NCBI GenBank assembly: GCA_947039545.1
Contig: CAMQZA010000001.1
Coordinates: forward strand, 8,295 to 72,294
Direction of reading: 5' to 3'
Source of the DNA: an uncultured Ureaplasma sp.
GTDB lineage: Bacteria > Bacillota_I > Bacilli_A > Mycoplasmatales > Mycoplasmoidaceae
DNA: 64,000 nucleotides
Shown: piece by piece, positions 9,001 to 12,000 of the stretch
Position numbering within the stretch: the first letter of the stretch is position 1
How the letters are laid out: every line of letters begins with the position of its first letter
Position numbers: made by a program

Positions 9001-12000
9001 GTAAGAGTGACCATACAACCAAATAAAATCATGAATGATCAAGCAATACTAAAATTAATTGGAACAAAAATATTTATTGCAGTTATTTTAAACACTAGGT
9101 CAGTATTTGGAAGTGACATTAGTATTATAGGAAAAACCAACAAAAGAATAAGTGCACCTAAAGGAACTATTATTGTTGGTTTTCTTTTTAAAACATACAT
9201 GTTTAAAAAATATAAATAGTTAAAAAAGGAAGACACTTCATTTTTAGAAGTTCTCATATTATTATTTTCTTTAGAATTTAATATATTATCAGTATTTTTC
9301 ACTAATAAACCTCTTTAAAATCCATAAATTATTTCTTTTCAGCTCTTAATTTTTTTAATAATAGGGTTGAATATTTACCAATTTCATCAAATACTAGTAA
9401 TTTTTCATCAATAGTATTACCTGGATTAGCTTTTAATCTATTAATATTATCTTTTAATTCTTGAATAGACATTGAATCTAAATCTTCACTATTATTTTTT
9501 GATTCAATAACTGCTTTTGCTGCTGCTTCTTTTTCTAATTCTGCTGCTTCTGCTTCTTTTGCTGCTTTTGCTGCTTCAAATTGATTTCTTTCAATTAAAT
9601 CTTGTTCTTCTTGTAATCTAATAGCTTCTAATTGCATTTCTCTTTGAGCATTTTCTTCAGCTATTCTTGTTGCTTCTAATTGAGCTTGAGCATTTTCTTC
9701 GGCTCTTCTTGTTGCTTCTAATTCAGCTTCTTTTGCTGGATCATATGCAGGAACAATAGGTTCTGATGAAGCAAAAGAATTAAAATCAGAACTTCCGAAT
9801 GATGAACTTGAATTTGAACCAAATGATGAACTCGAACCAAATGAATCATTACCAAATGATGAACTTGAACCAAATGAATCATTACCAAATGATGAACTTG
9901 AACCAAATGAATCATTACCAAATGATGAACTTGAATTTGAATCAAATGAAGAATCATTACCAAATGGATTACTATTGTCAAATGATGAAGTTGAAGTTGA
10001 ACCAAATGGATTGCTATTATCAAATGAAGGAGGCGGAATTAAAGATAATGGATCTTCACTAGTTAAAGCTGATGTAGAACTAAAAGGGTCTACAAACTCT
10101 TCTGCTGGTGGTGAATCAGTATTATTAAATGTACCTTCTTGATTTAAATAAGATGTATAATCCGGATTATAATCAGTTTGAAGATTTTTATTGTTAGATG
10201 AACGATCTTTTTTTGCCATAAAGAATTCCTTAGTGAACTATAAAAGTATTTTATAGTTATTATACTTACTTAAAATTATAAATTATTTTGTTTATATTTT
10301 TGTTTATATTTAAAAATTTTTTTTCATATTCTGTTTGAACATTATCAAAATTATATTTATTTTCAAGATTTTCATATAAATTTTCAGTATTATAAATCAA
10401 ATTTATTTTATCAATACTATTTAAAATAACATCATTTAGGGTATATAAATATAATAAATCATTGTCAGTTTTAAATTCAATTGTTTTATTTGGTAATAAA
10501 ATTTTTTGATAGATATATAAAAACTTTCAATTTGTTAAACGATTTTTCTCATGCCTTTTTTTAGGTCATGGGTCAGAAAAATTCAAATATATTTTATTAA
10601 TCATGCTTTCACTAAAAATATTTTCTAATTCAGATGCATCAAAAACTAGTAATTTTAAATTATTTATTTTATTCTCTAATTTAATTAATTTATTAATACA
10701 AATCGCTAAAACCGCTGGCATTTTTTCAATACCAACAAAATTTATATTTGGATTATTAATTGCTTTTTGAATAATAAAGTCACCTTTACCAACTCCAATT
10801 TCAAGTTCTATTTTTTCATTATCGTTATTAAAAATTTCTTTTCAATCTAATTTATTGTTTTCTGAATAATTAATTAGATAGTGATTATCTAAATTCATTT
10901 GTTCAATTAATTTAGGGTTTTTTCTAAGTCGCATTAATTATTCCTTAAATTCTTCATATTTTAATAATGAAAAATATTTTCTTTGTTTGATAACTTCATA
11001 AATTGCAATTGCTACTGTATTTGATAAATTAATACTAATAGATTTTTCATTCATTGGAATTCTAATTGATGTATCTAAATAATTCTTTAGAATTTTTTTA
11101 TCAATACCTTTAGATTCTTTACCGAACATAAAATAAATATCTTCATTTGTGTCTTCATAATTATATTCATCAAGCATTTTTTGACCATAACGAGAAAACA
11201 TATAAATTTTATCAGGATTATTTTTTGAAATAAAATCATCAAACGAATCATATTGTTTAATATTTTCTAAATCAAAATGATTAGTTGATGATCTTTTGAT
11301 ATATTTACTATCTAGGAAAAATCCATAAGGTCTTATTAAATGTAAGTTAGCATTAAAAGCATGGCATGTTCTTAATATATTCCCTGTATTATTAGCTATC
11401 TCTGGTTCAAATAAAATAATATTAATCATCTCTTTGTTACTTCTAAGTAAATTCTTTAGTTTTTGTTTCTATCTTTAATGATTTTAAAGATTCTAAACTT
11501 GAATTTAATTGTCCTTTATAATTTTCTAATTTTGTTTTTTCTTCATCTATTTTATTTTTTGGAGCTTTAGTAATAAAATTTTCATTACTTAGTATTTCAT
11601 TACTTCTTTTAATTTCTTTTTCAAGGAAGATAATCATCTTTTCAATTTTAGAAATTTCATTTTCAGAATGAAACTCAACTTTAGCATAAACTTCAATTAC
11701 AAAGTCATCAACTAGTTTAGTATATTTATTAGCTAAAATACCAACATTGGTAACACTTACTATTTTTGATTTCTTTAAAAATAGATAATCATTAATTTTA
11801 TCTGTTATTTTAGAAAATAATTTAATATCTTTTTTAGTTAAAATATTAATTTCTAAAAATTCATTATTACTTAAATTTTCTTCAGCTCTAATTTGATTTA
11901 TTGCAGTTATTATATCAATAGTTTTATTGATGATTTTTTCACTGCCTATTTTTAATTGAACTGGTCATTTTTCTTTTAATATTGAAATTTTAGGATTATA

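Follow-up and report, generated by a model that had tools for sequence, protein, structure and literature searches.

What is the orphan protein encoded directly upstream of an ABC-2-type exporter in an uncultured Ureaplasma sp., and what is its array of Phe-Gly (FG) repeats for? The gene lies at positions 9329–10219 (minus strand) of a 64 000-nucleotide (nt) stretch of contig CAMQZA010000001.1 (assembly GCA_947039545.1), which is referred to as the window and to which all coordinates refer unless another contig is named; its product is called X. The open reading frames (ORFs) of this DNA, which has a GC content of 23.7%, are intact only under genetic code 4 (TGA = Trp) and the source of the window is therefore a Mollicute. 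We tentatively propose that X is a clade-restricted, cytoplasmic and mostly disordered scaffold or tether that is anchored by a C-terminal hairpin, carries an array of Phe-centred motifs and is co-expressed with the ABC-2 exporter.

Layout and conservation of X

The coding sequence (9329–10219 including the stop codon, minus strand) runs from an ATG to a TAA, encodes 296 residues and has the same ends in the orthologues of four species. The strongest 19-residue window of the Kyte–Doolittle profile has a mean of 0.53, so that X has neither a transmembrane (TM) segment nor a signal peptide, as the initial annotation had stated; a hydrophobic N-terminus and a lipobox were looked for and neither is present. 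In an AlphaFold2 model built from the four-sequence alignment, residues ∼1–155 have a predicted local distance difference test (pLDDT) score below 50, in keeping with the disorder expected of this region, and are followed by a long helix and a short C-terminal α-hairpin.

Conservation is concentrated at the two ends. The N-terminal motif (residues 1–47; 10079–10219, minus strand), which reads MAKKDRS..DY..Y..YLNQ..F.N..DPF in its invariant alignment columns, has a ratio of nonsynonymous to synonymous substitution rates (dN/dS) of 0.42–0.61. The short helical domain that had been noted at the C-terminus is borne out by the model as a hairpin (residues 250–296, SIQELKDNINRLKANPGNTIDEKLLVFDEIGKYSTLLLKKL; 9332–9472, minus strand), in which helices 252–264 and 270–295 are joined by NPGNT and the pLDDT exceeds 90. 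Its alignment has 38 invariant columns out of 56, and its dN/dS is 0.2–0.3 against the two closer species and 0.79 against Candidatus Mycoplasma liparidae. As judged from these substitution rates, both the motif and the hairpin are under purifying selection. The hairpin has too many exposed hydrophobic residues for all of them to be buried in a two-helix monomer and hence probably oligomerizes or docks onto a partner; it would form the anchoring end of X and can be regarded as a putative docking or oligomerization module. A relationship to SAP/HeH-like hairpins, suggested by the string 'SIQELK...', was rejected, as no Pfam match was found at E ≤ 1 and the turn comprises five residues rather than an extended loop.

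The part of X that precedes the hairpin is much less constrained. An Ala/Glu-rich helix (residues 161–247; 9479–9739, minus strand), which we read as a spacer, is predicted with pLDDT block means of 87–95 through residue 220, dropping to ∼50 by residue 240, and its dN/dS is 0.8–1.4. The duplicated LEATR[RI]AEENAQ unit described earlier is present here as a 42-nt repeat in two copies (9644–9729, minus strand), encoding LEATRRAEENAQAQ and LEATRIAEENAQRE, with 93% matches according to Tandem Repeats Finder (TRF) and 36 of 42 bases identical by direct comparison. The heptads are weak, with at most 38% of the a/d positions hydrophobic and large hydrophobic residues making up 16% of the segment; thus, of the coiled coil proposed initially, the long helix is confirmed and the coiled coil is not established. 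In three species the middle of X is formed by an Ala/Glu helix, and in Ca. M. liparidae Pro-rich repeats, (TPEPIIEAPKS)x5, take its place. Such an exchange fits an extended spacer rather than a specific coiled-coil interaction. Whether built as a helix of ∼85 residues or from Pro-rich repeats, the spacer would keep the Phe-motif array away from the hairpin anchor.

The family is small. A word-indexed search of 5.8 billion proteins using X gave only near-identical strain variants (P0001, 285 residues; P0002, 264 residues) and one orthologue with 61% identity (P0003, 334 residues). When 1.84 billion representatives were scanned exhaustively with the C-terminal domain by HMMER, only five true matches emerged, two of which are more distant orthologues (P0009, 262 residues; P0010, 229 residues). 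Among the GTDB species genomes, the carriers of X are a metagenome-assembled genome of an 'uncultured Ureaplasma sp.' (the species of P0003, here with 307 residues) and Ca. M. liparidae (P0010), a gut symbiont of a hadal snailfish that falls within the pneumoniae group, between Mycoplasma and Ureaplasma (PMC6965317). A scan of a metagenome collection gave no match with the hairpin alignment and a single contig (L007) with the full X alignment, and a scan of viral contigs gave none. A word-indexed search with the N-terminal motif alignment also gave no match and is uninformative, as it missed the known orthologues too. Taken together, the sequences indicate that the X family is real, with a range limited to four sampled uncultured Mollicute species that form a small clade.

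A characterized family with some other role was a possibility that the initial annotation had left room for, and no Pfam, NCBIfam, PDB or fold relative was found. Scans of X and its orthologues against Pfam, NCBIfam, PHROGs and PADLOC gave no meaningful match; at E ≤ 1, Pfam returned only a spurious LptF_LptG hit for X and no EAGR box or other terminal-organelle domain. Profile searches of the PDB with the hairpin and with full-length X gave at best a segment of a yeast methyltransferase (E = 0.12) and RsiG (E = 1.2–1.9), neither of which is significant. A Foldseek search of the PDB and BFVD using the hairpin gave uL29-type hairpins and phage ORFs as its best matches (E ≥ 0.26), which represent generic two-helix similarity.

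A second setting of the hairpin is found in L002, a 1.1-kb Mollicute contig (23.6% GC) from the same Joint Genome Institute (JGI) sample series as P0002. An ORF entering from the 5′ end of this contig encodes, in this order, a hydrophilic stretch, a TM helix (IYMIVTAASTALLLIGGITAGTLIY), ∼80 residues of Lys/Asp-rich tail and an X-type hairpin. The hairpin DNA matches the window with 87.8% identity over 172 nt (BLASTN); over the 42-codon hairpin core the identity is 90% at the nucleotide level and 88% at the amino-acid level, about as close as that between the window and the orthologous contig L001 (91%). The flanking DNA on both sides is unrelated to the window. The positive-inside rule would place both the tail and the hairpin in the cytoplasm. 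We read this arrangement as probable domain shuffling of a cytoplasmic docking or oligomerization module, since the hairpin recurs on the presumably cytoplasmic tail of an otherwise unrelated membrane-anchored protein. The gene that adjoins it (L002 707–1117) encodes a BspA-type leucine-rich-repeat lipoprotein, and no ABC-2 gene is adjacent. The window itself contains a protein with a layout resembling that of the L002 hairpin carrier, a 281-residue surface protein (59439–60284, plus strand) in which a signal peptide is combined with a TM helix at the C-terminal end (..LILIGGISSG..) and a cytoplasmic tail of Lys-rich KPEKE/DKK repeats, but it lacks the hairpin.

The Phe-motif array

Between the N-terminal motif and the spacer lies an acidic disordered region (residues 44–152; 9764–10090, minus strand) that is rich in Ser, Asn, Asp, Pro and Gly, is devoid of Lys and Arg, and contains 16 Phe-centred motifs of the types SSFG, DSFG, NPFG, SSFD and DPFS at a spacing of 5–8 residues. 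Its composition (Ser 40%, Phe 15%, Asn 10%, Asp 9%, Gly 9%; net charge −11) agrees with the low-complexity array of Asn, Ser, Asp, Phe and Gly recognized initially. FG dipeptides occur ten times in these 109 residues, compared with a mean of 1.5 and a maximum of seven in 10 000 shuffled sequences. The three perfect 33-nt repeats that had been reported are likewise present as three exact copies within a perfect tandem tract of 102 nt (9834–9935, minus strand) encoding (SSSSFGNDSFG)x3; TRF reports a period of 33 nt, 3.6 copies and 98% matches over 9818–9935.

The copy number of this unit differs among strains. X has 296, 285 or 264 residues within the window species and 334 or 307 within a second species, with all changes in frame: P0001 lacks one 11-residue unit, and the deletion in P0002 is a different one. 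The number of motifs thus changes through in-frame repeat slippage, even within a species. The metagenomic contig L007 (SAMEA5043679 co-assembly, position 3–557) stops inside the 33-nt tract, which indicates that the repeat breaks short-read assemblies and that published copy numbers may be unreliable.

Comparison of the orthologues shows what is retained. The arrays contain between seven and 20 Phe-centred motifs with a common core of [DN]PF[GSN] alternating with [SP]SF[DNG], and every one of them has 13–15% Phe, no Lys or Arg, ∼10% Asp plus Glu and a net charge of between −6 and −13. The FG dipeptide is not part of this core: it occurs 10, 10, 4 and 0 times in the four orthologues, the zero being that of Ca. 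M. liparidae, and in the window species the Pro of the motif has mostly been exchanged for Ser, giving SFG. FG is therefore best understood, on the basis of these alignments, as a lineage-specific drift of a [DN]PF/SSF motif. The dN/dS of the array is 0.46–0.95, highest in the two closer pairs, with the alignment within the repeats being uncertain. In the scaffold that we propose, the array would act through numerous weak, multivalent contacts, be it with itself or with a client.

The initial annotation had emphasized a resemblance to the cohesive FG domains of nucleoporins, and an array of this kind could in principle form a selectively permeable hydrogel or condensate. The excess of FG in SxFG and PxFG contexts in the window protein and the sticker-and-spacer composition of an otherwise polar disordered region with a constant share of Phe in every orthologue speak for such a domain. 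However, FG itself is not conserved, an acidic array without a single basic residue disfavours self-cohesion, and a transport receptor or pore context is absent. Tails rich in Ser, Phe and Gly also occur elsewhere, in the unrelated bacterial metagenomic proteins P0005 and P0007, which have a pseudopilin-like hydrophobic N-terminus followed by SSSFG/GSNSSFG low-complexity sequence, and such repeats are therefore not unique to the X family. The array is acidic rather than charge-poor, and the likeness of X to the nuclear-pore repeats appears on sequence grounds to be superficial, being confined to the composition of the window species; we consider a nucleoporin-like function improbable.

The same motifs admit a reading in which X would be released and its DPF/NPF strings would act on the AP-2 and EH-domain proteins of the host by mimicry of endocytic motifs. 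The strings are there (two NPF and one DPF in the window protein, six and three in P0003, and six and five DPF in P0009 and P0010, respectively), and strings of this type in disordered regions are established ligands of EH domains and of the AP-2 appendage (PMC2238750, PMC12370899). X nevertheless has no signal peptide or lipobox for release, the hairpin of L002 is situated on the Lys-rich, presumably cytoplasmic, side of its TM anchor, the Pro-to-Ser change in the window species would destroy ligands of this type, and Ca. M. liparidae has been described as a gut symbiont without virulence factors (PMC6965317). Host mimicry is accordingly the explanation to which we give hardly any credence.

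A more sober alternative is that X is a fast-evolving orphan, the middle of which has no specific role and the terminal motifs of which serve some unrelated function, such as association with nucleic acid or the ribosome, its position beside the exporter being incidental. Under this alternative the 'FG repeat' would be nothing other than a drifted DPF/SSF motif in a tract that breaks assemblies, as in L007. The dN/dS values near 1 in the helix and, for the closer pairs, in the array, the freedom of the length polymorphism and the presence of ribosomal uL29 hairpins as the best, nonsignificant, fold matches are consistent with such a protein. The uL29 matches, however, are of the generic two-helix type, the ORF has remained open through many indels, and the Phe-rich, acidic, Lys/Arg-free composition is kept together with the motif core in four species despite turnover of the sequence. 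On balance, we regard the orphan explanation as distinctly unlikely.

The exporter neighbourhood and the role of X

Genes for ValS, a SpoU-type methylase and TrmB (10266–10934; NCBIfam TrmB E = 4e-46) precede X on its 5′ side. Downstream are an ABC-2-type permease of 562 residues (7614–9302, minus strand) and an ABC (ATP-binding cassette) transporter ATPase of 266 residues (6830–7630, minus strand), which was assigned to the DrrA/ABC-2-type subfamily by family-library scans. The permease has about five hydrophobic segments within residues 40–227, a hydrophilic stretch from 228 to 531 and a final TM segment at 532–557; the domain of ∼300 residues between TM5 and the last TM segment, already noted as external in the initial annotation, is thus seen and is presumably external. 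The ABC-2 Pfam score of the window permease is just below the cut-off (24.2 versus 27.2 bits); its orthologues have precomputed assignments to ABC-2 Pfam families, which are flagged as weak in L001.

X ends 26 nt before the GTG start of the permease at 9302, exactly as first noted, and the corresponding gaps in the four species are 26, 25, 13 and 40 nt. The order TrmB–X–permease–ATPase is kept in the three species with long contigs, and on the short contig L003 X and the next ORF are likewise closely spaced. A −10-like element, TATAAT (10259–10264, minus strand), follows the trmB stop directly and is a candidate promoter of the X–permease–ATPase unit; a −10-like box is found after the trmB stop in all four species, in the form TGnTAAAAT in L003 and L004. 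A generic promoter scan, with 42 sites against 42.1 expected, is uninformative in DNA of 24% GC. The ribosome-binding site AAGGAA (10226–10231, minus strand) is located 6 nt before the ATG of X, with GAGGAG and GGGGAA in orthologues, so that a good site is present in each of the four species. No terminator was found between X and the permease, and a palindromic hairpin of 26 nt with a T-run (6767–6792, minus strand) after the ATPase gene is the likely terminator of the unit. A hairpin with a T-run occurs at this position in the three species for which the region is covered, with compensatory stem changes relative to the window in L001 (∼11510–11540) and with an unrelated hairpin in L004 (∼11125–11155). 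Co-transcription, as suggested initially, is probable in view of the short gaps, the lack of an intervening terminator and the hairpin after the ATPase, and a predicted three-gene operon is the best reading of these sequence signals.

Between the −10-like box and the ribosome-binding site of X lies a perfect 10-bp palindrome, AACTATAAAA-TAC-TTTTATAGTT (10236–10258, minus strand), the stem of which is kept with a different loop in L001 and L005. As an RNA structure in the 5′ leader it was rejected, being no more stable than shuffled sequences (z = −0.63) and absent from two of the four species (L003 and L004); it could be an operator site or a chance occurrence. On the 3′ side of the ABC-2 pair are three tandem paralogous genes for 500-residue Bmp/PnrA-like lipoproteins (5165–6667, 3455–4957 and 1667–3262, minus strand). 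Three copies are also present in L001 and two are called in L004, where a gene for a 603-residue double-ABC ATPase then follows.

The tight linkage would suit a role of X as a dedicated subunit of the exporter, cytoplasmic in location and accessory or regulatory in function, with the hairpin binding the ATPase or the cytoplasmic N-terminus of the permease and the disordered arm gating the transporter, recruiting its substrate or regulating it. X heads the predicted three-gene unit, which is closed by a terminator only after the ATPase, and X and the permease are detectable only in one and the same small clade in the databases searched (the permease by a word-based search). The adjacency does not discriminate, however, because it lies within a 17-kb block of fully conserved gene order, and adjacency alone is therefore no proof of a functional link, given this synteny together with the shared narrow range. 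The L002 hairpin moreover adjoins a BspA-like lipoprotein gene rather than an ABC-2 gene, the Pfam and NCBIfam scans of X gave no accessory family, and we know of no ABC-2 system that uses a subunit such as X. We therefore consider a dedicated exporter subunit unlikely.

The scaffold model, which we prefer, accommodates the same linkage with a looser relationship to the exporter. X would have a promoter of its own and head a transcription unit that also includes the ABC-2 permease and ATPase; given the three-gene unit, the scaffold would probably be made together with the exporter and act at the membrane near to it. The hairpin would hold X in place, by self-association or on a partner, and the array would be displayed beyond the spacer.

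Several observations weigh against this model. The adjacency of X and the exporter forms part of a 17-kb block, bounded by GatB and the Bmp-like genes, that is collinear in the species with long contigs, and it is indistinguishable from general synteny. The family, PDB and fold searches give no homology-based functional anchor for X, the function of which is thus inferred. The argument for a docking module stands on one 1.1-kb metagenomic contig, L002; an exhaustive search found no second hairpin-bearing protein in two species with large contigs, so that a hetero-partner with the same domain is not general, and a search of the 64-kb window for a hairpin paralogue found none. Finally, the sequences of the disordered region and the spacer evolve nearly neutrally, so that the array may act through its composition only rather than through motif-specific binding. 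These points leave the scaffold model as a possibility that we favour rather than one on which we would insist.

A bolder version may also be entertained, although it must be counted as a long shot. Here the X family would represent a hitherto unknown membrane-proximal 'sticker-and-spacer' scaffold of wall-less bacteria. Docked through the hairpin on surface-protein tails, on the ABC-2 exporter or on both, and held together by multivalent cohesion of its Phe motifs, it would form a layer of condensate-like or cytoskeleton-like character by which the surface machinery is organized. Such a layer would have arisen independently, as a counterpart of the P65/attachment-organelle core or of the FG/DPF networks of eukaryotes.

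Two further genes of the window deserve mention. A full-length catalase gene is present at 51416–52939 (plus strand; Pfam Catalase E = 5e-176, with a further match to Catalase-rel). In Mollicutes this enzyme is rare, the known case being that of M. iowae, and the gene may represent an acquired oxidative-stress trait. A 655-residue protein with a DUF2779 domain (E = 5e-20) is encoded at 57345–59312 (minus strand).

Comparison with known systems

FG-nucleoporins (SxFG, PxFG and GLFG types) share with the window protein a disordered polar region with regularly spaced Phe 'stickers', but in X there is no pore scaffold, transport receptor or homology, FG is lost altogether in Ca. M. liparidae and the array is acidic. 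The FG spacing of nucleoporins is also wider than the 5–8 residues found in X. Eps15, epsin and Dab2 resemble X in carrying tandem DPF/NPF tripeptides in a disordered region, which is Ser/Asp/Asn-rich in X; in contrast to these proteins, X is bacterial, cytoplasmic and without an export signal, its motif has decayed to SFG in the window species, and bacteria lack EH and AP-2 partners. Mimicry of the tail of the single-stranded DNA-binding protein (SSB; DDDIPF) by the xPF motifs was considered and set aside, as the partners of that tail recognize a free C-terminal Phe, whereas the motifs of X are internal and lack one.

A parallel in organization is provided by PopZ, the polar hub of Alphaproteobacteria, a condensate-forming scaffold with a short N-terminal interaction motif, an acidic Pro-rich disordered region and a C-terminal helical oligomerization domain. 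X likewise has a conserved short N-terminal motif, an acidic disordered region and a helical C-terminal end. The two differ in phylum, X has no Pfam match and PopZ has no aromatic repeat array.

By architecture, rather than by homology, the closest analogue of X is P65 (MPN309) of M. pneumoniae. Both are acidic cytoplasmic proteins of pneumoniae-group Mollicutes and share a tripartite plan of an acidic Pro-rich repeat region that is disordered, a middle that is helical or coiled-coil and a small helical region at the C-terminus. The operon of P65 is p65-hmw2-p41-p24, in contrast to the ABC-2 context of X, and P65 is said to vary in size among strains, an observation attributed to Proft and co-workers in 1995. 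In P65, a disordered region of 217 residues with acidic Pro-rich DPN(Q)AY repeats is followed by a coiled-coil middle and a C-terminal helical region; the C-terminal part multimerizes, the disordered region projects as filaments and the protein stabilizes the membrane protein P30 (PMC11940719). The repeat motif is thus built around Tyr in P65 and around Phe ([DN]PF[GS]) in X, and the coiled coil of the P65 middle is unconvincing in X. P65 is a core protein of the attachment organelle, whereas no such organelle is indicated for the organisms that carry X. No homology of X to P65 or MG217 was detectable (hhalign probability 0.1%, BLASTP E = 11, using the P65 sequence from the supplement of PMC11940719), so that of the terminal-organelle resemblance drawn initially the architecture stands and a sequence relationship does not.

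If the scaffold model is correct, a second, non-homologous Mollicute lineage has evolved a P65-like protein with an aromatic-motif disordered region, a spacer and a multimerizing end. X would then offer a compact model of 296 residues for multivalent disordered tethers that organize the membrane of a minimal cell, and an annotation would be gained for a gene from the small clade-specific set of uncultured mycoplasmas of animal guts, for which the hadal snailfish is the one named host. By analogy, X may work in the manner of P65 or of a PopZ-type hub while being homologous to neither; in its layout, it is a non-homologous variant of the Mollicute type that combines a repetitive disordered region, a helix and a C-terminal domain.

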